The position numbers and the translations under genes were made by a program. A stretch of DNA of 64,000 bases. Source: Longimicrobiales bacterium. GTDB taxonomy: Bacteria; Gemmatimonadota; Gemmatimonadetes; Longimicrobiales; Gaopeijiaceae. Within the stretch, counting starts at the first letter, position 1; each line of letters starts with the position of its first letter. The DNA is taken from positions 1,056,001-1,120,000 of the forward strand of contig CAXXKM010000001.1 of assembly GCA_963664435.2 (NCBI GenBank). The letters run 5' to 3'. Below, piece by piece: positions 7,081 through 42,500 of this stretch. Under the pieces are notes generated by a model. It saw only the letters and a program-made list of their open reading frames with translations, was not told the origin of the DNA and made no database searches.

Positions 7081-7154
<74 letters not shown>

Positions 7155-24776: not shown

Positions 24777-27700
24777 TTACCGTAGCTTGATCCTTCCGCG
24801 GATACCCACCGAGTGCCGGGCTCCCTCGAGCCCGCTCTCGCGCCGCGTGCCTTCGAGGCGCAGCCCGACGCCCGCGCCGAGGTCGTAGCGTACGCCGCTC
24901 GAGAAGGCGCGCACCCCGCTCTCGCCGAGGTAGAAGCCGCTGTAGGGCGTTCCCTGGAAGCCGGCGATGCCGTAGGCCACCTCGCCGTCCACGTTGGGAC
25001 CCATGCCCAGGCCGTGGCCGCCCACCGCATCCGAGACCCCGCGCTCCCAGAGCTGGTTCACCCCGCTCGCGTGGTCGCCGTACGAAGACGCCACCCGGAT
25101 CTGCAGCCCCTGACCGCGGGCCGCAGGATCGAACATGAGCGTGCCGCCGAGACCCCATTCCTCGTAGCCGTCGCGCGCCGAGATCACGAACCGGCCGCGG
25201 CCCTCCGCGGTCACACCCAAGCGGGAGTTCGTATAGCGGAGTCCGCCGCCGACTTCCGCGCTGGTGCCGTTGATGGCGTCCCCGTCGTCGTAGCGCATTC
25301 CGCCCTCGAGCACGAACGCCATCTCGCTGTCGGTGTCCGTGCGGAAGTTCTGAGTCAACTCCAGGGCAAGCTTGCCGCGCTGCATCTCGAGCGTCACTTC
25401 CTCGATCTGCTCGCTGCCGTCGACCGTGACCTCGCCGTACCAGCCCTCGGCCTTGATGCGCACGCCGCCCGTGCCGCGCGTGAACAGCTGATAGCTGGCG
25501 CCTCCCGCCCCCGTAAGCATGCTCGCGGGGCTGGTGCGCAGCCCCTCGCGCTCGTCGTCTACCTCGATGTCGCCCCGGCCGAGCCCGGCCGAGCCCCACA
25601 CCGAGGCGCCGCCCGCCCCGGAAAACCAGGCCATGTAGGGATGCACGCTGGTCATGGTGGCGCCGTAGGTGCCCTTCACCGGACTGGCGCCGGTCTTGTC
25701 GGTGAAGTCGAAGCTGCCCGAGTTGTACGAGCCCGCGACACCCGCCAGGATGTCCGGCCCCACGCGCACGTCCAGGCCGGCGTGGGCGCTCACCATGTTG
25801 CCCTTCCAGTCGAGGGTGCTCTGGCCGGGTTCTCCGAGGTGGTGGTACTCGCCCGCGCCCCAGCTCCCCAGCTGCGTGCCCGTGGCGGACTGCTGCTGCG
25901 CGTCGGAGGCACCCAAGGGCATCTGGAATGAAGTGCCGCCGAAGAGGGCGGCCAGGCCGGCCTGGTCGCCCTGCGCGAGGCCGAGACCCCCCGCGTCCGG
26001 CGCGGACAGGCTCGCGGCCATCGACGAGAGCCCGTTCGTCTCCACGCGCCGCTGCATGCCCATCCCGCTGGCCACCGCGTCCACGCGGCGGGCGATCGCC
26101 GAGACCGTGCTCGATGTCATCGCCGCGGCCACATGCGGCAGGACCCGCGTGTTGAGCCGCCCCGCCCGCCCGACGGGGTCGTCGGTCTCGGCCGATGCGC
26201 TCACCGACGGCGCGCCGGCGCCCACCCGGTTGATCGCCGAGACGCGGTAGTGCCGCTCGCTCCCCGGCAGCAGGCCGGTGTGCGAGTACGTGGTGGCCCT
26301 GGACCCGGTGTTGACCACCAGATCCGTCCACGCGGCGCCGGTCTCCGAGACCTCGACGCGGTAGCCGATGACGGGGGCGCCGCCGTCGTAGGCGGGCGCG
26401 GCCCAGAACAGGTCGATCTGCGTGGGCGAGACATCGGTGGCGACCAGCCCGGTGGGCGCGTCGGGCACGGTCGCGTCGGTAATGGCGCTCGCCACCCGCG
26501 ACGCCCGGCCCTCGCCGATCCGGTTGATCGCCGAGACGCGGTAGTGGCGCCTGGTGGCCGGCTCGAGCCCCGTGTGCACGTAGGTCGTGCGCGTGTTGCG
26601 CGTGTTGGCCACCAGGTCCTCCCAGCGGACGCCGCCGTCTTCGGAGACCTCGATGCGGTAGCCGGTGATGCTCGCGCCCCCGTCTCTCGTGGGCGCGAGC
26701 CAGGAAAGCTCGATCTGCGAGGTGCCGCCGGCCTCCGCGTCGAGACTCCGGGGCGAGCCCGGCACGGTGGCTTCGGTCGTCGCGCGCGCGATGTTCGAAA
26801 ACGGCCCGGTCCCCGCGGTGTTGCTCGCGGCAACCCGGTAGTGCCGCGTGGTCGCGGGCTGGAGGTTCACGTCGGAGAACGTCGTCCCTCTGTTGTTGCG
26901 GCGGATGAGGTTCCAGGTCCTGCCCCCGTCGCCGGAGGCCTCGACCCGGTAGCCGAGAATCGGGGCGCCGCCGGTGTTGCGGGGCGCGCTCCACGACAGG
27001 TCGATGCGCGAGGTGCCTACCGCCCGGGCCGTCAGCCCGACCGGCGCCCCGGGGGCCTGGGCGTACGTGCTCGTGCTCGTCTCGAACGACCACTGGCCGG
27101 GTCCCACGCGGTTGATCGCCCTCACCTGGTACCGGTATGTGGTCGCCGGCTGGAGACCGGTGGTGTCCGTGAAGGTGGTCGCCGTCGAATTCGTGTTGGG
27201 CTGAATCGGGATCAACGTGCCATTTAGGGGGCCGCGCCGAATGGTGTAGCCGGTGATCCGCTCCCCGCCGTCGCTGTCCGGCGCCTCCCAGTTGAGGGTG
27301 ATGCTGGTCGGTCCCGTGGCCCGCGCGTGCAGGTCTTGAGGCTGGCCGGGCGGCGCTGCGCGGGTGGTGCCCCTGACCGGGCTCGAGTAGTTCCCCTGGC
27401 CCTGGGCGTTGAGCGCGGCCACCCGATAGAACCGGGTCGTGTTGGGGGCGAGGCCGGTGTGCAGGTAGGTGGTGGCCGTGCCGGTGGGGCCGGGTACGAG
27501 GATGACCCAGTCGGTGACGCCATTGGGGGATCTCCAGATCCGGTAGCCGGTGATCGGGCTCCCGCCGTCCGTGGACGGGGCCCTCCAGGTGAGTTGGATC
27601 TGAGTGCTCCCCCCCACCCCCAGGGGCGCAGTAGCCGTGAGGCTCGTGGGCGCGCCCGGAACGGTGAGATCGTCGGTGGTCGCGTGCGCGACGTTCGACC

Positions 27701-29255
27701 AGTCGCTCGTGCCCGCCGCGCTGATCGCCGCGACGCGGTAGTAGCGCGTGGTGGCGGGTGACAGACCGTCATCGATGTGCCTCGTCGTCGTCGAACCCGT
27801 GTTGGCCTCAAGAGTTCGCCATCTGCCAGTGCTCGTGCTCGACCACTCGATCCGGTAGCCGGTCACCGGGGACGTTCCACTGGACGATGGCCGCGTCCAG
27901 TCCAGCTCGATGGCCGATATCCCTCGGGCCTGGGCCGTCAATTGCCTGGGCGCATCCGGCACGTCCAGCGGGGTGATGTCGCCGTCGATGTTCGAGGGGG
28001 CTCCCGTGGCGAAGGAGTTGATCGCCGAGACCCGGTAGTAGCGGGTCTCGTTCGGCGTGAGGCTCGTGTCCTGGTAGGTCCTGAGCGTGTTGTCCGTGTT
28101 GGCCACGAGATCGCTCCATACGCCGGTTTCCGTGCTCGACCACTCGATCCGATACCCGGTGATCGCGCTGCTGCCGGGACTCAGCGGGGCGCTCCAGCTC
28201 AGCTCGATCGTCGAGGAACCGATGGCGGTCGCGGTCAGGGCACGGGGCGGCCCCGGCGGCGTGCCCGTTGACGTGGTGGCCATCTCCGCGGACGTCCAGG
28301 GCCCGAAGCCGATGGCGTTCCTCGCCCTGACCCGGTAATGGCGGGTCGTGCCCGTGGTAAGACTCCCGTGCTGGAACGAGGTCAGGCCCGTGGTCGTCAG
28401 CAGCGTCCACGGGGCGACGCCATTTGTCGACATTTCGACCTGATAGTCGATGATCGCGCTCGCGCCGATCGAGGCCGGTGCATCCCAGTCGAGGTCGATG
28501 ATGGTGGGCCCGGCGGCGGTCGCCGTCAGGTTGAGGGGTACTCCCGGTATCCCGGTCGCCGCCGTGGTGACGGTAACGAACTCCGGGGTTCCCGCGCCGC
28601 TGTTGTTCCACGCCGTCACCCGGAAAGTAGTGCGGACAACACCCACCGCCACCGGGCCCACATGGCTGGTCGCGGTGGCGAGCTTGTCCGCCAGCCGAGT
28701 CCAGGCGCCGCCGTCCCTGGACACGTCGATCTCGTAGCGGATGATCGAGCTGGCGCCAGTCGAGGTCGGTGTCTCCCACGCGAGGGTGACGATCGAGCCG
28801 ACGATGGTTGCCGTGAGATTGCGTGGTGGCGAAGGCGTCACCGTGCTCCCCGTGATGGTGATTCCCTCGGAATAGTTCGAGTAGTCTCCCGGCCCCAAAG
28901 TGTTTATCGCGGCGACGCGATAGAAGACAGGGGTGCCCTGAGGGGGATTTGTGTGCACGTAGGTGGTGACCGTGTTGGCAGTGTTGGTCACGACCTCTTC
29001 CCAATACGAGAGGGGAGTGTAGGTGATTTCGATCTTGTAGCCGGTGATCGGGAAGCTCCCAACGGGCAATGTCGGAGCTGTCCAGGTGAGATGGACCGTA
29101 GACCCGACGGCAGTCGCCGTCAGATTCTGCGGTGCCGGAGGTGTCTGAACCAACGGCATGCCCGCCGCCGCCGCGGGAACGCACGGAATCCAGCAGGCCA
29201 CCGCGGTGGCGACCATGAGGAAGCGGGCCGGCAGGCCCAGTCGGTTCCGAATCAT
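24777..29255 (-). CDS. Fibronectin type III repeat (10 domains) protein with autotransporter-like C-terminal barrel
   Basis: Signal peptide; ten P..P..LTA...W..P...G...ITGYRIE...YRVxAIN units; C-terminal beta-rich region (GLDVRVG, LEGGMRYDDGD). Confidence 0.85.
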   Translation of the reverse strand: MIRNRLGLPARFLMVATAVACWIPCVPAAAAGMPLVQTPPAPQNLTATAVGSTVHLTWTAPTLPVGSFPITGYKIEITYTPLSYWEEVVTNTANTVTTYVHTNPPQGTPVFYRVAAINTLGPGDYSNYSEGITITGSTVTPSPPRNLTATIVGSIVTLAWETPTSTGASSIIRYEIDVSRDGGAWTRLADKLATATSHVGPVAVGVVRTTFRVTAWNNSGAGTPEFVTVTTAATGIPGVPLNLTATAAGPTIIDLDWDAPASIGASAIIDYQVEMSTNGVAPWTLLTTTGLTSFQHGSLTTGTTRHYRVRARNAIGFGPWTSAEMATTSTGTPPGPPRALTATAIGSSTIELSWSAPLSPGSSAITGYRIEWSSTETGVWSDLVANTDNTLRTYQDTSLTPNETRYYRVSAINSFATGAPSNIDGDITPLDVPDAPRQLTAQARGISAIELDWTRPSSSGTSPVTGYRIEWSSTSTGRWRTLEANTGSTTTRHIDDGLSPATTRYYRVAAISAAGTSDWSNVAHATTDDLTVPGAPTSLTATAPLGVGGSTQIQLTWRAPSTDGGSPITGYRIWRSPNGVTDWVILVPGPTGTATTYLHTGLAPNTTRFYRVAALNAQGQGNYSSPVRGTTRAAPPGQPQDLHARATGPTSITLNWEAPDSDGGERITGYTIRRGPLNGTLIPIQPNTNSTATTFTDTTGLQPATTYRYQVRAINRVGPGQWSFETSTSTYAQAPGAPVGLTARAVGTSRIDLSWSAPRNTGGAPILGYRVEASGDGGRTWNLIRRNNRGTTFSDVNLQPATTRHYRVAASNTAGTGPFSNIARATTEATVPGSPRSLDAEAGGTSQIELSWLAPTRDGGASITGYRIEVSEDGGVRWEDLVANTRNTRTTYVHTGLEPATRRHYRVSAINRIGEGRASRVASAITDATVPDAPTGLVATDVSPTQIDLFWAAPAYDGGAPVIGYRVEVSETGAAWTDLVVNTGSRATTYSHTGLLPGSERHYRVSAINRVGAGAPSVSASAETDDPVGRAGRLNTRVLPHVAAAMTSSTVSAIARRVDAVASGMGMQRRVETNGLSSMAASLSAPDAGGLGLAQGDQAGLAALFGGTSFQMPLGASDAQQQSATGTQLGSWGAGEYHHLGEPGQSTLDWKGNMVSAHAGLDVRVGPDILAGVAGSYNSGSFDFTDKTGASPVKGTYGATMTSVHPYMAWFSGAGGASVWGSAGLGRGDIEVDDEREGLRTSPASMLTGAGGASYQLFTRGTGGVRIKAEGWYGEVTVDGSEQIEEVTLEMQRGKLALELTQNFRTDTDSEMAFVLEGGMRYDDGDAINGTSAEVGGGLRYTNSRLGVTAEGRGRFVISARDGYEEWGLGGTLMFDPAARGQGLQIRVASSYGDHASGVNQLWERGVSDAVGGHGLGMGPNVDGEVAYGIAGFQGTPYSGFYLGESGVRAFSSGVRYDLGAGVGLRLEGTRRESGLEGARHSVGIRGRIKLR

Positions 29256-29358: not shown

Positions 29359-32315
29359 TCATCGCCGCCACGCCGCCGCGTTCGGTATCCCGCGGCTGAA
29401 AAGGACATCGAATTCCGGCCCCGGGGACCGTCCCACGGCATCCATGGCGGCCCGGGCCGGGAGCGGCAGCTCGCGCAGAATGCCCCGCACCCGGCCGGTG
29501 CGCGGATCGCGCAGGATGGCCGTCGGGACATCGCTGTCGTCGTTCAGAGCGAATGTGCCGCCGGGACCGGCGAGGATGATGCCGGCAAGCTCGCCCGCCC
29601 ACCCGGGTTCCACCGGAAGGACAAACGCGAAGCCGGACCCGCCGTCGCCATCGGCCGCGCGGGGCATCGCGAAGCTGAACGAGAAGAGCTCGGTCCCGCC
29701 CGTGGTCCAGCCCGTCAGCGTGTACGCGCCGGCCGAGTCGGGGAGCGCCGGCGGCGCCTCGACGACAAAGGCCGGGTTCAGGAACGGCGCGCCGTCGGCG
29801 TCCGCGCCGCCCCACAGCAGGAGCGACCTTGCAGAGGCGGAGGCGACCGTCCCTGCCTCCGCGCGCGCCTCGAACAGCCGGTAGCGGAGCGCGTTGGCGA
29901 AGTGGTAGTCGCTGATCCCGTCGGGGGGGCCGCAGTACGACATCACGTCCGGGGTCGTGGGACGCACCAGTTCGCCGCGCGCGAAGTCGTAGCCCCAGGC
30001 CCCCGCCGATCCGTCCGGGTGGGGGAACGACGGGTCGGGAGCCCCCGCGCCGCCGCACGGGGCGTGATGGAGACCCAGGTTGTGGCCGAGCTCGTGCGCG
30101 ATGGTGCCCGAGCGGGGGATCGAGAAGCCCGCCCGGCCGGGGACGAACGCCGCCCCGGAGGGCCCCGTCACCGAGCCGGCCATCGTGCCCAGGTAGTGGC
30201 CGCCTCCGCCCTCCAGAACGCGGATCGCCTCCGTCTCCTCCATCAGGCGGCGGGCGTCGTTGCTCGAGCTCAGCACGGGCTCGTGCGCCGTCAGCTCGAG
30301 CGCTCCCACCGGGAGCAGCGCGCGCACGTCCGCGAGCAGCGCGTCGCCCTGCGGGTCCGCCGCCATCCCCCGGACCGCGTCCAGGATCGAGGAGTCCGGC
30401 GCCTGCGCCCACAGGAACGGAACGACCGTCAGCTCGAGCGGCGGCAGGGCCCGCACGTCGACCGCCAGCCGCCCGGTCGCGGGAATCCGCCGCGCGACGC
30501 CCAGCGCGGGGTCGAGCGTCCCGTCGGGGTCCACCTCGACGACCATCTCGAGGCCGGGCCGCACCACGCTCCCCGGGATCTCGGCGCTGACCGAGGTGGC
30601 GAGCGAGCCCTCGTCGACCCCCGTCGGAATCGTCCCGGACCCGCCCGGAACGTACTCCGCGTGCGTCTCCCGGTCGTCGACGAAGAACCGGGCCCGGACC
30701 GCCGGAACGCCGGCGCCCGCGGCCCGCGCCGCCGTCGGGAACACGCGCAGCAGCGCCTGCGCGCCCGCGACCAGCGGGACCGGGAACGCGCGCGACTGCA
30801 CCGCCTGCACCAGGTACGCCGCCGGCGCCTCCCGCCCGGCACAGGGCGCGACGCGGCGCGTGTGGACCCCGTCGAGCCAGGCCGCGAAGGCGGGGTCCGC
30901 GGGCGCGCACAGCCCCGTGCGCCCGGCCAGGAGCCGCTCGAGCCGGCCGAGCGACATCAGTTCGGCGGGAAGCGAGCCCGACATCCGGGGGTTGCCCGTG
31001 AGCGCCAGTCCGCGCAAGCTCGCGAGCCCACCGAGTTCGGGCGGCAGCGGTCCCGACAGGTCGTTGTTCTCGACGCGCAGCTCCTCGAGGGCCGGGAGGT
31101 CGCCGAGTTCGGGCGGGATCGCGCCCGTGAGCGCGTTGCCGTCGAGGGCCAGGTGCCTGAGTGCAGACAGGCCGCTCAGTTCCGACGGAATCGCGCCCGT
31201 GAGCGCGTTGTCGCTGAGCCGCAGGTATTCCAGGTGCGCCAGGTCGCCGAACTCGGGCGGCAGCCGGCCCGCCAGGCCGTTGTCCCAAAGCCGCAGTTCG
31301 ACAACCCTGCCCTGGTCGTCCACCTCGACCCCGCGCCACTCTGCGAGCGGCGCTTCCGTGAGCCAGTTCCTCGAGTCGATCCAGTCGCGCCCCACCGTCG
31401 CGGCGTGGAGCATCTCGAGGATCTCCCGGTCCGTGGCCGGCGCGCACTCCGCCCCGGTGTCCCCCAAGACCGCGATGGCGTCCAGCCATCCCCGGAACGC
31501 CTCGTCCGCCGGGGCACACAGCTCCGTGCCGGCGTAGTCCAGCTCGCCCAGCGACAGGCCGAGCAGGGTGCGCGGCAACCGCCCGGACAGCGCGTTGTCG
31601 CCGACGCGAAGCGCCGTCAGCTCGCCCAGACCCGCCGGCAGCCGCCCCGCCAGTCCGTTGCCGGTCAGGTCGAGGGTCGCGACGCGGCCCAGGGAGTCGG
31701 TCTCGACCCCGTGCCACCCCACGAGCACCGCGTCGCCCAGCCAGCCCTCCGAGTCGGTCCAGCCCGCGCCGCCCGCGGCCGCGTGCAGCGCGGTCAGCGC
31801 CGCCCGGTCTGCCTCGTTGCAGAACGGCCTCTCTCCGGTCTCCCCGATCCCGTCCAGCCAGGCCATGAACTCGGCGGTGCCCGGCGCGCAGAGACCCGCA
31901 TTCTGCTCGATGCGGAACCGCACCAGCCCGCCGACCTGCAGGAGATTCCGCGGGAGCGCGCCCGTCAGTGCGTTCCCGCTCAGGTACAGGAACTCCAGGC
32001 GCCGGAGACCGCCCAACTCCGCCGGTACCGGACCCTCGAGCCGATTGCCGTCCAGGGACAGCCCCCGCAGGTGCACGAGGCTCCCCAGCTCCGGCGGAAT
32101 CGGACCCTCGAGCCGGTTGCCGTTGAGCCACAGCCCCTCCAGACCGGCGAGATTCCCCAGCTCTGGAGGGATCGGACCCGCCAGCGCGTTGCCGCTCAGG
32201 CTCAGCGACGTCAGGCCCGCGAGATTCCCCAACTCCAGCGGAATCGTGCCCTCGAGCGTATTGCCGTCGAGCCACAGCTCCTCCAGATCGGCGAGATTCC
32301 CCAGTTCCGGCGGAA
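29359..32315 (-). pseudogene. 3' part of interrupted LRR lipoprotein: plant-type LRRs plus zinc metallopeptidase domain
   Basis: 24-aa LRRs (LxLxGNxLxGPIPPELGxL), AHELGHNLGLHH and Met-turn DVMSYC; begins mid-repeat at the element junction. Confidence 0.85.
32304..32315 (+). repeat. att core, left copy GTTCCGGCGGAA
   Basis: Identical to 38646-38657; contains palindrome TTCCG-G-CGGAA. Confidence 0.9.
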
Positions 32316-32496
32316 CTAGATATCCGTTGTCCCATGTAGTCCAATGAGGTACATGAGTGCGTTCATAACACGTTATTGGACAACCGTTTCCGGTGGTACT
32401 GTCTCGTTTCATCGTCCCTTGCCGTCCGTTGTGATCCCGTGTATTCTTCCCTGTAGAGTGATTTGGTATGTGATACACAACGGCAGGAAGGACCGC

Positions 32497-33651
32497 ATGA
32501 CGAAGCGACCCAAGACGCTTACCGCCGCCTTCGTTCGGACGGTCAGCCGACCCGGAGTCTACGGCGACGGACGAGGAGGCCGCGGGCTGAGCCTCCGGGT
32601 GTACCGGACGGCCAACGGTCGGATCACCAAAACGTGGCGTCAGCGCGTCCGGATCGACGGGCGACTCACCTCGATCGGTCTCGGTCCGTATCCCGAGGTC
32701 ACGCTCGCCGACGCCCGGGAAAAAGCGCTGGACAACAGCCGGAGGGTTCGCCGGGGACAGGATCCGCGCGGGCGCGGCGTGCCGACCTTCGCCGAGGCGG
32801 CCCGGCGGACCATCGAGCTTCACCGCGACTCGTGGAAGGCCGGGAGCCCCTTGCCTCAGCAGTGGGAATCCACGTTCCGGCTCCACGCCGCCCCGCTCCT
32901 CGACAAGCCGGTGGACCGGATCACGAGCGCGGACGTGCTCGGGTGCCTTGGCCCGATCTGGAACTCGATGCCCACGGCCGCGCGGAAGGCCAAGCACCGG
33001 ATCGCCGCCGTGTTCCGGTGGAGCATCGGCCGCAATTACCGCCGGGACAACCCGGTCGACCGGGCGGTTGCGGCGTTGCCGAAGCCGAACGGGAACCCAG
33101 GAAGCCATCACCGCGCCCTGCCGCACGGGGAGATCGCTGCGGCGCTTCGTTCCATCCGCCGGGTGGGGGACGGGAGTCTGGCTGCGTTGTGCGCCGAACT
33201 GATTGTGCTCACGGCAGTCCGTCCCGGCGAGGCGCGTGGCGCGCGGTGGGACGAGATCGACATGGACGCGGCAAGGTGGACGATTCCGGTGGCGAGGATG
33301 AAGGCGGGACGCGAGTTCACGGTCCCGCTCAGCACGGGCGTGCTGGAGGTGCTGATTCAGGCGCGCAAGCTGTCGGACAAGTCGCCGCTGGTGTTCCCGT
33401 CGCGGACCGGCCGGACGCTTGCGCCGAAGACGGTGTCGCGGGTGCTCCAGATGGCCGGGGTGGACTCGACGCTGCACGGATTCCGGTCGAGCGCCCGGTC
33501 GTGGATGGCCGAGACCGGCGTCCCGGCGGAGGTCGCGGAAGCCTGCCTCGCCCACGTTCCCAAGAGCCGGGTCGTTCAGGCGTATCAGCGCTCCGACCTG
33601 CTGGAGAGACGCGCCGAAGTCATGCAGGCTTGGAGCGACTACCTCGGGTAG
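32497..33651 (+). CDS. int: Tyrosine integrase, P4-like with N-terminal arm-binding domain
   Basis: PGVYGDGRGGRGLSLRV, IGLGPYPEVTLADARE, catalytic R (VRPGE), K (RMKAG), HGFR, LAH, AY; RBS AGGAAGGA. Confidence 0.95.
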   Translation: MTKRPKTLTAAFVRTVSRPGVYGDGRGGRGLSLRVYRTANGRITKTWRQRVRIDGRLTSIGLGPYPEVTLADAREKALDNSRRVRRGQDPRGRGVPTFAEAARRTIELHRDSWKAGSPLPQQWESTFRLHAAPLLDKPVDRITSADVLGCLGPIWNSMPTAARKAKHRIAAVFRWSIGRNYRRDNPVDRAVAALPKPNGNPGSHHRALPHGEIAAALRSIRRVGDGSLAALCAELIVLTAVRPGEARGARWDEIDMDAARWTIPVARMKAGREFTVPLSTGVLEVLIQARKLSDKSPLVFPSRTGRTLAPKTVSRVLQMAGVDSTLHGFRSSARSWMAETGVPAEVAEACLAHVPKSRVVQAYQRSDLLERRAEVMQAWSDYLG

Positions 33652-33952
33652 CCACTTGCCTCCCCCAACGCCGATCAGCACCACCCTTCCACCTCCGTAG
33701 CGCGGTTCGGCGGTCGCCCGCGACCGCGTTGCCGGCATCCACGGCGTCAGCCGGGTCGAACCGGGCCTCGTCGGACCGGTTGTCACACCTTCGGACGATC
33801 ACTCCGCGGTTCGCCAGGGGGGGATCTTGCCACGCCGCTGGCAGCGACCGCAAACGGGTCGTAGACGGCGTTGGAACCCCATGGAAGGCTGTGGAAAGGT
33901 AGGGAATTTCCGACCGTTGACGCCGTCCCGAATGGTCCACCAGCGTTCAGGC

Positions 33953-34180
33953 ATGGAGACGCTGGAAGAGCTATTCAGATCGCGGGTTAGCGCGTTCCTC
34001 GGGCGTTCGAGCCTGAGCCCGACGGCGTTCGGCAAGAAGGCGCTGGGCGACCCGAACCTGATGCGCCAGATCGGTCGGGGACGCTCGCCGACGCTGAGGA
34101 CGGCGGACCGGATTCTCTCGTTCATCGCCGAGCAGGACGGAGCATCGGGCGGTGGACGCGATCCGCCTCGACGCCCGTGA
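33953..34180 (+). CDS. Small Cro-like HTH protein
   Basis: LSPTAFGKKALGDPNLMRQIGRGRSPTLRTADRI. Confidence 0.65.
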   Translation: METLEELFRSRVSAFLGRSSLSPTAFGKKALGDPNLMRQIGRGRSPTLRTADRILSFIAEQDGASGGGRDPPRRP

Positions 34181-34228
34181 GACCGGAGACCGACCAGCAA
34201 GCAGCGAACAAGGAGGAGGAGAAGGACG

Positions 34229-34525
34229 ATGACCGAGAACACGATGGAACGGAGGATGAACCCGCCGATCCGCTTCCTGCGGCTGCCCGAGGTGATGGCG
34301 CGCACCGGCCTGTCGCGGAGCACGATCTACGTGCGGCTGGCAGAGGGGCGCTTCCCCCGGCCGGTCGCCCTGGGCGGGCGGGCCGTGGGGTGGATCGAGG
34401 CCGAGGTGGACGAATGGGTCCGCGAGCGCATCGCCGAGAGCCGGTTCGACGGCGCGCGGGCCGGTGAGCGCGGCGAGGCCGCGCGGGGGATTCGCCGGGC
34501 GGCAGAGGCCGGCCCGGTTCGATGA
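34229..34525 (+). CDS. alpA: AlpA-family regulator/excisionase
   Basis: FLRLPEVMARTGLSRSTIY...FPRPVALGGRAVGWIEAEVDEW; strong RBS. Confidence 0.93.
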   Translation: MTENTMERRMNPPIRFLRLPEVMARTGLSRSTIYVRLAEGRFPRPVALGGRAVGWIEAEVDEWVRERIAESRFDGARAGERGEAARGIRRAAEAGPVR

Positions 34526-34574
34526 GCCGGCGCGCTTCGCGGCGGTCGGGGAACAGCCCGTCGGACTCGTCTAA

Positions 34575-34700
34575 GGCCGGTGAGCCAGCACACGCGATGT
34601 TGAACATCGCGGCTGGCGAGGGGTTGCTGCGCCCCCTTCGAACCCCCGGCCTGCCGCGTCCCTGGCGGAGCAGCGGACGCGCGGGGGCGAGGCCCCCGAA
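34575..34700 (+). other. Candidate oriT region
   Basis: TGAGCCAGCACAC (34581-34593) resembles ColE1 nic region TAAGCCAGTATACAC, upstream of mobC; GC-rich hairpins follow. Confidence 0.45.
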
Positions 34701-34719
34701 ACCCGTCTCCGGTGCGACC

Positions 34720-35058
34720 GTGGCTGAGCATCGCACCGTGATGGTCGCCGCCCGGGTCACGCCCGCGGAACACGCCGCCTGGCGGGAGAAGGCGGCTGCG
34801 GCGGGCGTGTCGCCGTCCGCGCTGCTGCGCGAGGCGATGGCGCGGACCCAGACCTGGACCGCATCGGCACGGGCCGTCGAGCGCAAGCGCACCCGCCAGA
34901 TCGCGCGCATCGGAAACAACCTGAACCAGCTGGCGCGCTGGGCGAACACACACGCCTCGACGGCCGAGGCGGTCTCGGTGATCGCCCATTTGGTGTCGTT
35001 CGAGCGGTCGCTGCTCGCCGTGGCACGCATCGGCGAGGAGGCCCGCGATGCTCGTTAA
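34720..35058 (+). CDS. mobC: MobC/MbeC relaxosome accessory protein
   Basis: RHH-like ARVTPAEHAAWREKA..AGVSPSALLRE and QIARIGNNLNQLARWAN. Confidence 0.9.
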   Translation: MAEHRTVMVAARVTPAEHAAWREKAAAAGVSPSALLREAMARTQTWTASARAVERKRTRQIARIGNNLNQLARWANTHASTAEAVSVIAHLVSFERSLLAVARIGEEARDAR

Positions 35059-36571
35059 GTTCCTCTCCCATGGGAAGGGCTCGGCCCGGGCGGCGGTCGA
35101 GTATCTCGTCGGCGAGCGGGACGCGGCGGGACACGAGCGCGAAGGCGTCGAAGTCTTGCGCGGGAACCCGGAGATGGTGGCCGCCGTGGCCAACTCGCTC
35201 GACTTCGAGCGCAAGTACACGTCGGCCGTGATCGCATGGGCGCCGGAGGACCGGCCGACCGGCGAGCAGATCGGAGCCGTCCTCGACGAGTTCGAGAAGA
35301 CCGCCTGGGCGGGACTGGAGCCGGACCGCTACGCGTGGACGGCCGTCCTGCACCGCGAGCGCGGCGGTGGCGTCCACGCGCACATCCTCGCCGCGCAGTG
35401 CGACCTCCAGACCGGGCGGAGCCTGAACATCGCGCCTCCCGGCTGGCAGCAGACCTTCGCCCCGCTTCGCGACGCCTTCAACCACGAGCACGGCTGGAGC
35501 CGCCCGGACGACCCGGCGCGAGCCAGGGCGCAGCGGCCGGGCCACGTGGCCTACATCGAGGCGTCGAAGCTGCGGGCCGGACTCGAACACGAGGCGGACC
35601 CCCGCACGCTGATCCGCGACTATCTGGTGCAGCGCGTCGAGCACGGCGCGGTCAAGGGCCGCGCCGACGTGGTCTCCGCGCTGGAGGACGTGGGGCTTGA
35701 GGTGCCCCGCCAAGGCAAGGACTACATCACCGCCCGCGATCCGGAGAGCGGCAAGCGGTGGCGGCTGAAGGGAGAACTGTATGAGCGAGACTTCGAGCCC
35801 GAACGACTTGACCTCGCGGCTGAGGAGCAGGCTGGAGGCCGACCGGAAGGAGATCGAGGAGACGGCCACGCGCGAGCTCAGGCGGCTTGGCGAGAGCTTA
35901 GGCGCCGTCAGAAGCGACGCGCTGCGTTCCATCGAGGCCGATACGGTCGAGGCGACCGGGCGGATGCGCGAGTTGCTGATGAAGGCCTGGCTCCGGCCGC
36001 TGGTGGTCGGCATGAGCCTCTTCCTTGGTATCTGCGGCGGCAGCTGGGCGACGATGCACTGGTTGTCGAGGAGCATCGACTCCCGGATCGAGACCTTGGC
36101 GGAGGTCAAGCTCAGGATCGTGCGGGCGCGCGACACCTTGGCGGTGATGCACGAGACGACGTGGGGCATCGAGTTGCAGGAAATCAACGGGGATCGGTAC
36201 GTGTTGCTGCCCGCCGACACTCCGGGCCGTCCGGCATTCACCATGGACGGACGGCCCTACATGAAGCTCTCGAGAGAGTGAGGAGGGAGTTGCATGAACG
36301 ACTTGGAACGGCAGTTGACAACCGCCTTGGAGCGGTTGTCCGAGCAATACGAAACGGAACAGCGGCGGCACTGCGGACAGATCGAAACGTTGCGCGAGCA
36401 GGTCGAAGCCTTGCAGCGGCAAGTCGAGCGGCTGAGCGGGCGGGTGACGGAGTTGACCGGATACTCCGGGACCTACGGCGCAGGGCCAGGGCGCGGGTGG
36501 AGATGACGCGCCGACTGGTGGAAAAGATCAGGCGTCCCGGGCCGGATCGGGACTCGGGGCCGAGCCGGTGA
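35048..36571 (+). CDS. Relaxase, ColE1 MbeA-like
   Basis: MLVKFLSHGKGS..AVEYL, VLRGNPE, KYTSAVI, HRERGGGVHAH, GWSRPDDPAR, RLKGELYE. Confidence 0.9.
   Translation: MLVKFLSHGKGSARAAVEYLVGERDAAGHEREGVEVLRGNPEMVAAVANSLDFERKYTSAVIAWAPEDRPTGEQIGAVLDEFEKTAWAGLEPDRYAWTAVLHRERGGGVHAHILAAQCDLQTGRSLNIAPPGWQQTFAPLRDAFNHEHGWSRPDDPARARAQRPGHVAYIEASKLRAGLEHEADPRTLIRDYLVQRVEHGAVKGRADVVSALEDVGLEVPRQGKDYITARDPESGKRWRLKGELYERDFEPERLDLAAEEQAGGRPEGDRGDGHARAQAAWRELRRRQKRRAAFHRGRYGRGDRADARVADEGLAPAAGGRHEPLPWYLRRQLGDDALVVEEHRLPDRDLGGGQAQDRAGARHLGGDARDDVGHRVAGNQRGSVRVAARRHSGPSGIHHGRTALHEALERVRRELHERLGTAVDNRLGAVVRAIRNGTAAALRTDRNVARAGRSLAAASRAAERAGDGVDRILRDLRRRARARVEMTRRLVEKIRRPGPDRDSGPSR
35781..36281 (+). CDS. MbeB-like mobilization protein nested in relaxase (+1 frame)
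   Basis: RBS AAGGGAG; helical N-terminus, central TM segment (LVVGMSLFLGICGGSW), TWGIELQEINGDRYVLLP. Confidence 0.7.
   Translation: MSETSSPNDLTSRLRSRLEADRKEIEETATRELRRLGESLGAVRSDALRSIEADTVEATGRMRELLMKAWLRPLVVGMSLFLGICGGSWATMHWLSRSIDSRIETLAEVKLRIVRARDTLAVMHETTWGIELQEINGDRYVLLPADTPGRPAFTMDGRPYMKLSRE
36294..36506 (+). CDS. MbeD/MobD-like protein nested in relaxase (+1 frame)
   Basis: RBS GAGGAGG; MNDLERQLTTALERLSEQY coiled coil like MbeD. Confidence 0.75.
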   Translation: MNDLERQLTTALERLSEQYETEQRRHCGQIETLREQVEALQRQVERLSGRVTELTGYSGTYGAGPGRGWR

Positions 36572-36800
36572 TGATGCCCTTGCTGCTGGTCGGCCAAGTG
36601 GCGGCCTCAGTCCCAGAGCGACTCGAAGACCCCTGACATCAGCCGAGTCCTTCCCATTGCGGGGCTTGCCCGAACAGGCTTGCACGAAAGGCTTGATGGC
36701 TAACCACATTTGCGTTAGCATGCGGGCGTTCACGGGCCGTGTCTCCCCGACGGGTGGCGCGGCCAATCTTTGGCAAACCTCTTATGGGAGCCCAACACAG

Positions 36801-37007
36801 ATGTCATTCCTCACCCGTTCTTTCCGTGGCTTGGTCGGTTCGCTCTGCGTCGCCGCCGCGGTCGCTTTCCCTGGAACCGCTCAAGACGTCGGCGACTTGG
36901 ACCCATGCTTCGACACCTGTCACAGTGTCGCCATGCTCATCTATCTGGGCGGTGACGAGGACGGAGCGTCGGACTTCTTCGACGAGTGCATGGACACCTT
37001 TTGCTAG
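36801..37007 (+). CDS. Small secreted acidic Cys-paired peptide (element cargo)
   Basis: RBS GGGAG; signal peptide ending GTA-Q; mature part CFDTC...CMDTFC. Confidence 0.6.
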   Translation: MSFLTRSFRGLVGSLCVAAAVAFPGTAQDVGDLDPCFDTCHSVAMLIYLGGDEDGASDFFDECMDTFC

Positions 37008-37024
37008 TTGCCGGTCCTGACTCG

Positions 37025-38158
37025 GTGTTTCGCAGTTGTTGGGTGGTCGCGGCAATCTCAGCACTCGCCGCGACCGCCTGCCAGACCGAGCCCGCACATG
37101 TCGCTATACCTGAGTCGCTCGCGTTGTTTCCTGCGGCGGCGTCTCCGGCACCACTGAGCGTCAGCAGGAGCATCGCCCTCGCTGACGAAGAGACAGCCTG
37201 CGTCGTCGATTCGTTTGAATTTCGGGTGGTTTGTGGCAGGCGTGAAGGCGAAGAGGGCGTCGCATTTGGGCGGCAGGGCGATGGCCCAGGGGAGTTCCGT
37301 GGCCTCAGTTTGGTGGCCCGTGTTGGGCTTGGCCGCTTGGGCGTCGTGGACGGTAGGCTGAACCGGTTGACCATATTCAGCGCCACTGGTGACCGCGTAT
37401 CGGAGGTCACTTTGCCTCCGATGTACTTCGCCGATGGAATTCGACAGACGACCTTATTCGGGTCCGAGGTCGATCTAGCAGCGTATTCCCCGGGAGATTC
37501 GATCTTGACGCGGGTCTACTCCCAGGTGGACGTCAATTCGGGAGAGGTCACATGGACGCGCGGAGATATGAACGGGCTCGCCGATACTGAGTGCGGCGGA
37601 TTGGACAAGGGCGTGCCTCGACCGGCGGCAGGATACGTGTTCTGGGCATGTCGCAAAGAGTTGGTCTTTCTTGACTACAGTGACGCCGACGCCGCGACTG
37701 TAATCACGTCTCCAGCCTATCGGGAAGAACTCCCGAGCCAGCGTGATGTCGAGGCTTTTGCTGAGGGGCTGACGAGGCTTGGAGGTAGGATGGCCATGCC
37801 GAGGTCGGCGGCCAATCCCTACGTCGAGACATTCCGTGAAGCACCTAAGCGGTGGTTCAACGTGCCGGGCGCGCTGCTGTTTGATTCAAAGGACCGGTTG
37901 TGGGTGGCAACCACGCTCGACCGCGACACCTTCTCTTACTTCGAAATCTGGATTGGGACCGAATACGCTGGTTCCGTTCGGGTGCGGGATCGCGCGATGG
38001 GCTTCGACCTCTTCCGCAACACTCTGGCGGTATTGGTCGAACGGCAACCGGGACCCGACGGAATCGCACCTCGGGGTATCGACTGGTACGACATCCGTGA
38101 CCTCGATTGCCGAGCATCAGAGGCCGACCGAGGTTGCAGTCTAAGCCCTAGCAGCTAG
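37025..38158 (+). CDS. 6-bladed beta-propeller lipoprotein (element cargo)
   Basis: Lipobox ATAC; FGRQGDGPGEFR; FDSKDRLWV; lower GC; start uncertain. Confidence 0.75.
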   Translation: MFRSCWVVAAISALAATACQTEPAHVAIPESLALFPAAASPAPLSVSRSIALADEETACVVDSFEFRVVCGRREGEEGVAFGRQGDGPGEFRGLSLVARVGLGRLGVVDGRLNRLTIFSATGDRVSEVTLPPMYFADGIRQTTLFGSEVDLAAYSPGDSILTRVYSQVDVNSGEVTWTRGDMNGLADTECGGLDKGVPRPAAGYVFWACRKELVFLDYSDADAATVITSPAYREELPSQRDVEAFAEGLTRLGGRMAMPRSAANPYVETFREAPKRWFNVPGALLFDSKDRLWVATTLDRDTFSYFEIWIGTEYAGSVRVRDRAMGFDLFRNTLAVLVERQPGPDGIAPRGIDWYDIRDLDCRASEADRGCSLSPSS

Positions 38159-38645
38159 TAGCCCCCTTCCATCTTTGGTTTGACGCTAGGCGCGCCGGCG
38201 ATAATCGGGTGCCCCGGTCCCGATGGAGGTGAAAGGGAGGATGCTTCGTCGGGCTGCCCGGTCGCGATCAAGGGCAAACGCCGCACGAGGTAGCGCCCAA
38301 GCCACGAATGAGGCGGCTGGCCCGCCGCCCGCGGATAGGCCAACCGAAGGGGCTCGCCAGCCGGCGATATCGTTTCGACACCACGGGTATCGTCTTCGCT
38401 CTCTACTCCGCGTCCCGATGGAGGTGGCAGCGGGGCGCTTCGTTGGTTGCTCGGTCCCCGCTGAGCCTCACCCCCACGATCCGCACAACCGGTCGCTCGC
38501 CACGGCCTGACCGAACGGTTACATCCAACGGCATCCGGTGCGGTCGCGTGGATTCCTGCTCATTTCTGTATATCTCAGGTGGTACATGAACGCCAAATGT
38601 CCGTGTAACCCGTTGTAATATAGTCGTTTAGCATCGTGTGCAATG

Positions 38646-38657
38646 GTTCCGGCGGAA
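38646..38657 (+). repeat. att core, right copy GTTCCGGCGGAA
   Basis: Identical to 32304-32315. Confidence 0.9.
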
Positions 38658-39330
38658 TCGGACCCGCCAGCGCGTTGGCGCGCAGATTCAAGGACGTCAG
38701 GCCCGAGAGACGCCCCAGTTCCGACGGGATCGTCCCCCGCAGGCCGTGCGACACCCACTCCCCGGTCTCCCCGTCCTGGCGGCCGCCGAGGTCCAGGCGG
38801 ACGACCCGGCCGAAGGCGTCCGTCTCCACCCCGCGCCAATCCTCCAGCGGCCCGTCGGTCAGCCAGTTCTCGTCGTCGGCCCAGTTCGGCCCGTCCGTCG
38901 CCGCGTGGAGCGCGGCCAGCGGCGCCCGGTCCCCACTCTCCACCGCGACGGTCACCGTCGCCGTGCCCGCAACCGCACCGACCGTCGCCGCGACCGTGGT
39001 CGTCCCGTTGCCGGTCGCCGCCACCAAGCCCGACCCGCCGACCGTCGCGACCTCGGGGCGCACGCTCGTCCAGATCACCGCCACGCCGGACATCGCCCGC
39101 TCGTTGCCGTCGCGCACGTGCGCGCTGAGTTGCACGGTCGCGTCCGGCGCCGTGAGCGACGCGGCCGCAGGCGTGACCGTCACGCTGGCCACGCCAAGCG
39201 TCTCGGAGGGAGGGCGCGTTGCGTCGTCGCCGCACCCCGACGACGCACACGCCGCGACCGCGCAGATCGCCAACAACGGGACGCGAATCCGTGTGCGGAC
39301 GTTCGGGGCCCCATCGCTCTCTCGTTCCAT
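38646..39330 (-). pseudogene. 5' part of interrupted LRR lipoprotein: signal, Ig-like (Big_2) domain, LRR N-cap, first LRRs
   Basis: SSGCG lipobox-like, VASVTVTP...VATVGGSGLV, NWLTDGPLEDWRGV, ...NALAGPIPPE then unrelated element sequence. Confidence 0.85.
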
Positions 39331-39501: not shown

Positions 39502-42500
39502 TTAGCTGGGTGGAATGGCTGCCGGGGTGCCCTTCGCCCACGTGCCCCCGTTGTCCACCCTCGTATCGACGCGAAGCTGGCTCGCCTTCGTCAGGTTGGA
39601 CTGGCTGACTGTGTAGAGAAGGGCTGGAGCGTCATCGTCTACCCATCCGTCGGTTGCTGCGTTGGCAGGAAGGTTGAGGTCAAAGTCACTCGAGTTCCAC
39701 TTGCCCCAGTCGGATCCAGAGTCGGTTTCTGGGTCGGTGTCCCTCGATACGGTAGGCGCCGTGATGGTGCCAGCGACGACCCATTCCCATCTGTTCTCCG
39801 TGGTGGAGCCGGTCTCGACCTGGACATATAGCGCGATTCGGTGCTCCAACTGCGGGCTGCCCGCTCCAGACCAGGAAGCTGTGATCACGTCTGTCACATC
39901 GGCGCCTCCTACGCCGCCCCCGATGTCGCGGTCCACCGTGACGCCCGAGGCACCCGAGGCCACGCCGGCAAGCTCTGCAGCGGCACTGACGGCGGCCGCG
40001 GCGTCGCGCGCGGTTCCATCTGCATCTACCACTGCGTTGCCGATCTTGACGTTGATCTCCCGGTAGTCATCATCGTCGTCTTCAGGAATGATGTACGTGG
40101 TAATCCGATCGTGCTTTACGGTGGTACCGGCGCTCGCCGTCCCGCGGCCGGCGGTACCGGCGGTGTTCGCACTAGTCCTCGTCCCGCGGATGGCGGGGGC
40201 CACGGTGGTGACGCCGCCCGAGGGCGCAGCAAAGGTGCTGCCGGTCGCGGTTGTCAAGGCGACGGTCGCATCATCCGCGGCCGTGTACGGGTTCGTGTTG
40301 CCGGCGCCGTCGTCGCCGGGTGCATTTCTGGTCTCGTAGTGCCACGTCACCACGATCGTGTCCGTAGGTTCTCCCTGGACGAGGCTGAATCCACGGGTGG
40401 CCGCGTCCGGTGTAATGGCGCTGGCCGGAACGGCCTCGCCTTCATGGGCGGCCCTTATCGTCACCCGCCTGACGCTCGCGATTCGGGGCTGGACGCTGTT
40501 TCCGGTGAACGTGCCGAACTGCAAGGTCTGGCCGGGGATGACGGCGATCGTGCCGCCGGGTCTGGTTGCCGGCGGATCGAACCAGGTATACCTCTCCGCG
40601 TCCCTCAGATTCAGGAAGTTCGGATGGGTGGGATCATAGTCGTCCCGAGGCGCGGCGCTGAGGGTGACGGTGCCGCTCAGGGTGGGCACCTTGAGGCTGA
40701 ACGTCCCGGTCTCCGTGGTTGTCACTTTAGTGCTACCCGACGTGGGAGCAGTCCAGGACGCCGTGACCGTAACCTCGGCGTGGGGCATGCCGCCTCCCGG
40801 ACCGGTCACCAGGCCAACAATCTCGGTGGCCGCGTAGCCTGTGAAGTCGATGCTCTGGCTCCCCCCGGCGATGGCCGAGGCCTGGCGGCTGGCGGGTATG
40901 AAGTGATAGCCGGTCTTACTCGGAGTCACGTCAACGAGTGGGTCATTGTTCGGCTGGATTTCGACGACCGCCGTGTAGGTGCCATCATCATCCGTCGTGA
41001 CCTTCCCTGATCCCTGCCCTGATCCCGCGTTGAGCGGGGCCTTGCCGTCCACCTTGATCTCCACGCCCTTGATCGGTGCGTTGGTACCGGCTTCCGTGAC
41101 CGTGCCGGTGATCGCGACGGTGTTGTTCGCGCCACTGAGGGAGATGTCGTGCCTCTCCACCGTGTTGGCGGCGAACGCGGGGGGGTGGGTTCCGGAGCCG
41201 GGGTTGTTAGTGGAATCCGCCTTGGCCGCCGGATATCCCGCCCTCTCCGTATTCACGAAGAGCTGTCCCCGCACGGCGCTGATGCCGGACACGATGTAGC
41301 GGCCCAGGTCGTCGGTCGTGGCCGTCATGCCGTTCACGGTCACGGTCACGTTCTCAAGGCCGACGCCGAGCGCGTTCCGCACGAAGCCGTAAAGGGTGGA
41401 GGTGGACGGTGTGACGTCGATGTGGACGTTCGTACCGTGGCCTCCCTGCCCAAGCGGGCTGAGCGCGTCTTCCGCCTTCATGGCGCCGACCATGCCCCGC
41501 CATCCGTCGGGAAGGCCGAGCTCGTAGGCGCCGGCCGCCATGGTTTCGAAGTCGTGATCGGTGCGCTCGTCGATGTCTGTCGTCGGGTCGTTGCTCGACG
41601 CAGTGGTGAAGGACCGTCCGACACCCGCGAGATTCTTGCCTTCGGCCGGTGTCAGGCTGACCTCGACCCCCGATTGACGCTTATCCCTGGCGTCGGTCGT
41701 ACTGAATCCGGCGCCCGACTTCCTGACTCCGTTCTTCGACACGTTCGCGGTCACATCGTGCGTGGTGACGACGGCGAACGAACCGCACTTGCCGAAGTCC
41801 TGGCCGGTGGGCTCGGTCTCCGTCAGCGGACAGAGCGTCACCGTGTGCCCCCAGCCGCCCATCGCGCCGAACGCACCGCCCATCACGCCGTTCTCGGCCA
41901 TGTTGCGGTAGGTGTCAAGCCCGTGGAGGTCAAGCAGCATGTAGCCGTCCATGGCGGTCGCATGAACGACAATGTCCAGGTCCGCCGGCAGGTGGGCGAA
42001 GGTGTATGCGCCCCTGCTGCCGCTCGTGTTCGCCCTGGAGTCCCAATCATCGCTCGAGATCGGACTGGTGAACCTGCCGTCGTTCCCGCTCGCCTGCCGG
42101 ACCTCGAGATCGACCAGCCCGGCTGCCCTGACGTCGCCACCCAGGACGCTGCCCGTGTAGCCGCGGACCTGGTCGCGCTCGTGGTGCACGTAGACCTTCA
42201 GCGTCTGGGTCGTGTAGGTCACCACGATCGGAGTGGCGTCCATGTTGCCAGCCAACTTGAGTCCGTTGTGCTCGTACATGCCGCCGGACGCCTCGTACAT
42301 CTCGCCGCCGTCCAGCTCGTCGTCCTGGTCCTCGGCGGCCGCAAAGGTGAAGACTGCGGGCAGGGCGTCGGGGGCCACGACGGTCGTGAACGCCGCGTTG
42401 CCGTCGTCGTCCAGCATCGTCGGCGCACCTGGGACCGCGTCTGCGCCGGACATGACGCTGATCTCCCAGCCAGCGAGCGCTTCGCCGCCACCGTAGTCGG

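Follow-up and report, generated by a model that had tools for sequence, protein, structure and literature searches.

How does a mobile element come to lie exactly across the conserved codons of a protein repeat, and is its position there of use to the host gene or to the element? The question is raised by a 64,000-nucleotide stretch of a Longimicrobiales bacterium (contig CAXXKM010000001.1, positions 1,056,001 to 1,120,000; hereafter the window), in which a lipoprotein gene with leucine-rich repeats (LRRs) is split by an element of 6,342 bp carrying a tyrosine integrase, an AlpA-family protein and a mobilization (mob) module. Our answer is that this is very probably a selfish integrative mobilizable element that uses the I-P-P-E-L codons of 24-residue LRR units as a distributed bacterial attachment site (attB). 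The element is bracketed by 12-bp direct repeats (32304-32315 and 38646-38657) that extend neither way; an earlier note made from the sequence alone had placed it there, and its coordinates and domains were confirmed. Recomputing the empty site gave, as that note had claimed, an open reading frame (ORF) of 3,630 nt (1,209 amino acids) with no internal stop and a perfect, in-phase 24-residue LRR over the junction. The parts of the occupied site are as follows.

29359-32315, minus strand: 3′ part of the host gene, with five LRR units, more LRR blocks and caps and an M66-like HExxH peptidase; stop codon at 29359-29361.
38646-39330, minus strand: 5′ part of the host gene, with a lipoprotein-like signal, a Big_2 Ig domain, an LRR cap and the first LRR unit; it ends 23 codons into the element.
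32303-32317, plus strand: attL core, made up of a host half-site, the spacer CGGCG (32308-32312) and the element half-site GAACT (32313-32317); the same layout is found at 96 LRR insertions.
38646-38659, plus strand: attR core, from sequence comparison, made up of the element half-site GTTC, the spacer CGGCG (38650-38654) and a host half-site.

The functional core would thus be a pair of inverted 4-5-nt half-sites around a 5-nt spacer, and not simply the 12-bp repeat. Pfam bears out the content that had been proposed for the host gene, with Big_2 in its N-part and LRR_1, LRR_4, LRR_8 and Peptidase_M66 in its C-part. Taken alone, the 12-bp repeat is weak evidence for the element because the same 12-mer occurs ten times in the 4.51-Mb genome (five of the eight copies other than the two ends lie in LRR code). 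The support is mainly comparative and comes from conserved end motifs, intact homologues and contigs that cross both junctions with zero differences. The C-part is 84-89% identical to intact homologues (L143, L145 and L149-L155), and among 14 same-genus regions nine hold complete, uninterrupted homologues of 1,141-1,235 codons, two are unbroken to the contig edge and three are broken. The intact L143 shares synteny with the window on both flanks. The break in L148 falls in the same LRR unit as that of the window and the break in L146 one unit later; L142 is broken in the second LRR block, with an element attached. The first LRR array of the intact homologues ranges from 4 to 8 entries; this variation was dropped as evidence of mosaicism, since slippage explains it equally well. 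The junction contigs cover the LRR side and 21 element bases past each core in runs X1 and X2, and at the right junction also in X6; several of the sequencing runs in which the stretch occurs carry the label sponge metagenome, and no RNA run was among those listed. Repeats abound in LRR arrays and at the multi-copy element ends, and several relatives are fragmented metagenome-assembled genomes (MAGs), which might raise the suspicion of an assembly or binning artefact. Yet the junction contigs come from independent runs, the same architecture is found in chromosome-scale records, GTDB genomes and JGI/ENA metagenome contigs, and conserved motifs mark both ends. We regard the probability of an artefact as negligible: it is refuted by the junction contigs, the intact homologues and a copy of the element in a second genome, G574 (see below).

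We may then ask whether the position of this single element reflects a habit of its family. A search of genome contigs with the integrase returned 75 loci, mostly from Gemmatimonadota, Longimicrobiales or Ca. Palauibacter MAGs, and whole-genome searches found up to ten copies at ≥73% identity in one genome. A set of 100 distinct elements (integrase identity ≥60% with a match at the N-terminus; three classes corrected by hand; L009, which has no core, and partial integrases excluded) comprises 66 elements inserted in LRR units and 19 that use a conserved non-coding site; the other 15 lie elsewhere. A profile scan of all loci yielded 127 distinct left ends, 96 of which, 51 antisense and 45 sense, fall within an LRR unit at its I-P-P-E-L codons; the script classes (52 LRR antisense, 44 LRR sense, 16 attachment-like and 15 other) were corrected by hand, with L292 taken as an LRR site and L117 and L137 (spacer TGCCG) as not LRR. 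As many as 64 of the 66 LRR sites are distinct from one another (flank comparison at identity thresholds of 75-85%). LRR targeting is, from these comparisons, a family trait, in line with the earlier inference of an element specialized on a multicopy protein-repeat motif. A screen of 401 genomes of the phylum, with only two candidates scored in each, detected the left end in 25 of them, from three genera in two families. Spread across phyla is not claimed: L034, titled outside the phylum (some titles read Gammaproteobacteria or Acidobacteria), shares its insertion with the Ca. Palauibacter-titled L036.

The aligned ends reveal the rule behind these sites. The core is a quasi-palindrome, the left and right arms of the element are conserved and share a short motif, and in relatives the GAACT half-site core lies 181-185 nt before the integrase ATG. 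Among the 27 LRR elements with both ends, the partner LRR half is in phase in 24 and an identical 5-nt spacer is present at both ends in 24. Those that depart from this are L043 and L034, whose flanks are discordant, L323, for which the right-end call is doubtful, and L041 and L054, in which the spacers differ by one base. The spacer itself varies by lineage (GGGCG, CGCCC, CGGCG, CGCCG and rarer ones). In the lineage with the GAACTCGC end, the spacer CGCCG is used in the sense direction at P-P-E codons five times and antisense at P-A-E codons three times, which matches the prediction for a homology-dependent exchange on a quasi-palindromic core. LRR code makes up 0.3% of the DNA of this genome; yet a 15-nt core with the seven observed spacers has 31 genomic sites, 26 of them in LRR code, and all ten genomic sites of a 15-mer combining the commoner half-sites with the element's own spacer lie in LRR code, attL included.

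Evidence that the address is carried by the DNA motif comes from G574, a genome of the same family and another genus (two contigs, 97% complete). It contains the same element, with five mismatches over about 6.3 kb and a 1.55-kb transposase-like insertion, in a different LRR gene, at P-P-G codons and with the spacer CGGCG at both ends. Because this near-identical copy sits in a different LRR gene, what is recognized would be DNA and not one particular gene, and the near-identity points to recent movement between genera. In addition, an identical cargo contig is five to ten times deeper than the LRR flanks in runs X1 (167 versus 34-36), X2 (24-27 versus 4-7) and X6 (117 versus 6-13), an excess that fits several hosts or sites per sample, depth being no copy number.

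The element itself is organized as follows (all on the plus strand unless stated).

32313-32496: element left end, with putative arm-type sites and the integrase ribosome-binding site, from an alignment of 16 left and right ends and a profile match.
32497-33651: tyrosine integrase of 384 amino acids, IntSXT/P4-like, with Arm-DNA-bind_3, Phage_int_M and Phage_integrase domains; R242, K269, H327, R330, H353 and Y363 present.
33932-34180: small conserved ORF, probably a helix-turn-helix regulator (a guess from the sequence), with no Pfam or NCBIfam match; present in most complete LRR elements.
34229-34525: AlpA-family protein (PF05930, E = 2e-23), likely an excisionase or directionality factor.
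34563-34610, strand not assigned: candidate origin of transfer (oriT) and nic region 5′ of mobC; a short motif, possibly akin to that of ColE1-type nic regions, was present in 25 of the 66 stretches examined.
34522-35058: MobC/NikA relaxosome accessory protein (Pfam NikA/MobC), the true start probably lying further downstream.
35048-36571: MbeA-like relaxase (PF03432; NF047848 MbeA, E = 3e-34, under the curated cut-off).
35781-36281: MobB/MbeB-like ORF overlapping the relaxase in a second frame; conserved in complete elements, without a family match and named by position only.
36294-36506: MbeD/MobD-like protein (PF04899 above cut-off; NF033829 below cut-off).
36801-37007: cargo, a small cysteine-containing peptide, probably secreted; no family match, and found only in the window element among those compared.
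36986-38158: cargo, probably a six-bladed β-propeller, DUF5128/NHL-like (ESM Atlas features 0.94-0.96, a lead only; no Pfam match).
38511-38649: element right end with putative arm-type sites, from the end alignment and a profile match.

A GTGATAC-like motif of the left end recurs in the right end in the alignment of the 16 ends. The integrase most likely starts at 32497 rather than at 32344, because in relatives the core sits 181-185 nt 5′ of that ATG. Its three domains (PF13356, PF22022 and PF00589) are all above the Pfam cut-off; the match to PRK09692 has an E-value of 3e-40, yet stays below cut-off, and PDB entries 2khv and 3ju0 are also matched. The R-K-H-R-H-Y residues, rightly called intact in the earlier note, are invariant in 57-59 of 59 aligned LRR-clade integrases, the remainder being gaps. 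With an integrase and a relaxase module between attachment sites and no type IV secretion system of its own, the element has the make-up of an integrative mobilizable element; MobA is present in all 18 complete LRR elements examined, and no replication gene was found in the window element. The order mobC, relaxase with an overlapping second-frame ORF, mobD is that of the ColE1-type MbeA/B/C/D module, with weak MbeA and MbeD matches, except that here the module rides on an integrative element and scores below the NCBIfam cut-offs. Nine further ColE1-like mob modules in the genome of the window (G000), about 73% identical, have no close integrase or LRR within 15 kb and were set aside as unrelated to the element.

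We propose the following mechanism. The I-P-P-E-L codons would form a quasi-palindrome of two inverted core-type half-sites around the 5-nt spacer, probably with a 7-bp overlap. The near-symmetry of these half-sites would allow entry in either direction, provided that the spacer of the element matches the spacer read on that strand; an element with CGGCG would take P-P-E codons antisense and P-A-E codons sense. Each genome would offer about 10-30 sites across many accessory surface-protein genes, a many-copy and presumably low-cost landing pad common to sponge-symbiont genera. Integration would truncate the host gene with no replacement sequence supplied by the element; in the LRR elements compared, the N-half always ends within 5-23 codons after integration. 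Excision assisted by AlpA, a role suggested by PMC10111431, would restore the gene, and the circle would be mobilized by the MbeA-like relaxase via a helper conjugation system. This genome contains four TraG/VirB4-like ATPases which could be helper conjugation parts. Occasional single-base spacer mismatches would let the spacer drift, and occasional excision at a neighbouring LRR unit would move repeat units between genes.

Several observations weigh against this scheme. In the two LRR-targeting subclades of the integrase tree, L044 has a full left end off LRR, and L009, 96% identical, has no left-end core. LRR targeting does not form one clean clade, according to a deep branching order that is moderately supported. 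Since the motif was learnt from LRR sites, the genome scan shows its rarity outside LRRs and is not an independent prediction. A 13-nt core built from all observed half-sites and spacers is far less specific, with 166 genomic sites, 69 in LRR code and 97 outside, and selection against other insertions may contribute to the pattern. Neither a circle nor an empty-site joint appeared among the joints listed from assembled contigs of four of the 20 runs (contigs drop rare variants), not one of the 48 distinct right ends directly abuts a left end, and PF03135 (VirB4) has no match in this genome.

Some of these points would be expected of a transposon-like integrase that recognizes a short motif and has no tie to LRRs, the LRR bias arising from lethal or purged insertions elsewhere. 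The 97 candidate sites outside LRR code are in its favour, as are a sister clade of about 65% identity inserted in several unrelated genes and the single-base spacer mismatches (L041, L054 and four in the group at the non-coding attachment-like site). However, one extra base on each side brings the sites to 26 of 31 in LRR code, and the element's own spacer to ten of ten, and L044 is the only full left end off target in the LRR subclades. In a genome of 4.5 Mb the majority of genes are probably dispensable, which counts against filtering by lethal insertions. Transposons of the Tn916/CTnDOT type act independently of homology, at many sites per genome and in both orientations, with non-matching coupling sequences. 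The window family shares the many sites and the two orientations with them but, unlike them, has the same spacer at both ends in 24 of 27 elements and keeps it when the element moves, as in G574, which points to homology-dependent strand exchange. We consider such a promiscuous enzyme unlikely and retain an integrase addressed by LRR codons.

The relationships between these integrases were followed on a FastTree tree of 93 elements and five outgroups, built from the homologues collected here with seven short LRR-class integrases left out. LRR targeting fills two subclades, L044 being their off-target member, so that the result which the earlier note had named as fatal to its proposal, close homologues at tRNAs or unrelated sites, was not obtained there. 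Between the two lie the 19 non-coding-site elements, two elements at another protein repeat (L178 and L184) and two others. tRNA genes adjoin only several homologues of 30-40% identity, and the close sister clades use other, non-tRNA sites. The sole tRNA gene of the window is at 7081, and the element does not occupy a tRNA or single-copy gene as P4 islands do. The 19-element sister group (L123-L133, L174-L183 and L194; integrase identity 73-81%) occupies a conserved non-coding site of about 90 nt that resembles the attachment region of another mobile element; L066, L071 and L074, of the 65% clade, occupy the same sequence in the opposite direction. L178 and L181/L184 interrupt a different repeated protein domain, with right ends mapped without certainty, and retargeting to another protein repeat may have happened independently. 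Other members of the 65%-identity clade (L134, L138, L140, L137 and L139) occupy a variety of protein genes, one gene family being hit three times, and one insertion of this clade falls in an apparent radical-SAM cysteine motif, read by eye. Specificity has changed over short evolutionary distances, from LRR codons to a non-coding attachment-like site, another protein repeat and unrelated genes, and the family is a natural series for the study of how tyrosine integrases change specificity.

The earlier note had further suggested that the element might be a reversible on/off switch, that is, a domesticated element keeping the LRR-peptidase lipoprotein off until excision at some stage of symbiosis. 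Indeed, excision in silico restores the frame exactly, both gene halves are intact, integrase and AlpA look intact, and the lack of a replacement sequence is typical of regulated gene integrity according to PMC10111431. However, no dedicated target gene is conserved across strains: 64 of 66 targets are distinct, both orientations are used, nine complete homologues of the host gene are free of the element, and the same element lies in a different gene of another genus. Given this second location the window insertion would be recent, and its intact halves need no extra explanation. Several genes carry two elements (L028/L159, L033, L040 and one LRR gene in G574), the N-half of L049 is frameshifted, the mob and transfer genes are intact, no regulatory timing of the kind implied by regulated gene integrity is evident for the family, and the listed contigs yielded no excision joint. 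The switch is thus very unlikely, and this part of the earlier proposal does not stand beside the selfish, LRR-addressed element. Two related ideas were also rejected. A conserved restart for the C-half does not hold, as most relatives show stops within 2-25 codons, although in the window the frame runs on into the element. A search of the left end gave no sigma-70-like promoter. A C-half acting as a plant-pathogen LRR effector finds NCBIfam matches far below cut-off that cover only the LRRs. On the minus strand the C-half continues as an open frame of about 490 codons (32344-33786), through the left end and the entire integrase gene; the same is seen in a few close relatives, but it is not conserved and is probably a by-product of GC-rich codon use.

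Paired elements in one LRR gene are recurrent (L015, L019, L033, L034/L036, L040, L050, L165/L167, L028/L159, L206, L292, L315 and L317), often 1-8 units apart and placed back to back, face to face or in tandem. Such pairs may have arisen because a gene that is already dead can be reused freely, or by local hopping. In L034 both flanks are N-halves, apparently an element-bounded rearrangement.

One locus suggests that repeat units themselves can travel. In L172 (the same locus as L043), two LRR units inverted with respect to the host gene come after the true right end; a third core, again with the same spacer, and then the N-half come next. The host halves join in frame without the two extra units. 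These units have at most 64% and 71% identity to the 18 units scored in or beside the host gene; a unit from a different LRR gene in that genome matches them at 85% and 76%. The simplest reading is that excision occurred at a neighbouring unit in an earlier host and that the enlarged circle then integrated here; an inversion would require a spacer mismatch. The host gene has no intact close homologue (best match 69%, in one of 120 other genomes), so spacer logic and unit identity are the grounds for choosing between transduction and inversion. Among the 27 elements it is the single case, and it shows up only because of the inverted orientation of the units. It is possible, if doubtful, that these integrases as a family serve to shuffle repeats among the eukaryote-like LRR surface proteins of the symbionts, in which case L172 would show the intermediate. 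Every LRR unit would be a potential attachment site, excision at a neighbouring unit would capture whole 72-bp units. Were the re-insertion co-oriented and a normal excision to come after it, the foreign units would stay behind, in frame, in a gene new to them, which might even be one of another genus. If so, host-facing receptors would diversify in exact repeat steps.

How does this compare with known systems? The window family resembles the IntSXT (P4/Sf6/SXT-like) islands in its arm-binding tyrosine integrase next to attL, its AlpA protein, its inverted half-sites and its arm-like motifs; its Arm-DNA-bind_3 domain (PF13356) is what we take to be the DUF4102 family. The N-terminal arm-binding domain (DUF4102) is described as the mark of IntSXT, whose clusters insert at fixed loci near essential genes (tRNA, prfC), in PMC8138268. 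Unlike these islands, elements of the window family take as their target a degenerate coding motif that is present in many copies within accessory genes, and they enter it in either orientation; insertion disrupts the gene, and one genome can hold many such elements. The prophage-like phiRv1 of Mycobacterium tuberculosis is said, from work of Bibb and Hatfull in 2002, to use several REP13E12 copies. It has a serine integrase and a handful of near-identical repeat copies, with no internal tandem protein repeat and no two orientations, and it is not known to transduce repeat units. Like the window element, it is integrative and has its attB in a repeated family, REP13E12 (PMC9317374). Helper-embedded phage-inducible chromosomal islands (HE-PICIs) and cases of regulated gene integrity also combine a tyrosine integrase with AlpA and interrupt protein genes without replacement, and the HE-PICI clade repeatedly switches attB while keeping spaced arm-like motifs (PMC10111431). 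HE-PICIs are co-oriented with prophage late genes and have one site per site group, whereas the window lineage uses many genes through one repeat motif; moreover, no primase-replicase or packaging-interference genes, as would mark a PICI or phage satellite, were found among the element ORFs with Pfam and NCBIfam. In viral contigs the integrase homologues are only 33-36% identical, and in plasmids below 60%; a 20-letter core pattern occurs in 118 viral stretches, none with a left-end profile match, and these were discarded as chance matches.

Insertion into genes is not unusual in itself, 43.4% of mapped islands lying in coding sequence (PMC12424338). A full-text literature search, mostly of titles and abstract starts, returned no integrase targeting LRR or protein-repeat codons; Mageeney et al. 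(2020) and the TIGER database, both outside its scope, may list some of these sites, and the available part of PMC12884075 does not mention leucine or LRRs. As far as this search reached, the element is thus of a known kind with a new, undescribed kind of target. In the usual account a site-specific integrase has a single conserved locus as its target; in this family, a P4/SXT-type enzyme would use a protein-repeat consensus as a distributed attachment site, in many paralogous genes and several genera. This would be a third strategy between single-site integration and transposition, its rule being quasi-palindromic codons with a 5-nt spacer as address, and it would provide a mechanism by which sponge symbionts lose, regain and possibly remix LRR surface proteins. 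For annotators, many ‘split’ LRR genes in these genomes would be occupied sites.

Finally, three further genes of this genome deserve mention. Directly 3′ of the LRR gene, and syntenic in relatives, 24777-29255 (minus strand) encodes a large surface protein in which about nine fibronectin type III repeats are combined with what is probably an outer-membrane β-barrel end. On the 5′ side, 39502-44388 (minus strand) encodes a lipoprotein of 1,628 amino acids with repeated carboxypeptidase-regulatory/SdrD B-like domains, a paralogue of which adjoins another integrase at G000:C3:1,778,000. At G000:C3:618,700-620,230, outside the window, another LRR gene is interrupted by a two-frame transposase that looks IS3-like when its translation is read by eye.

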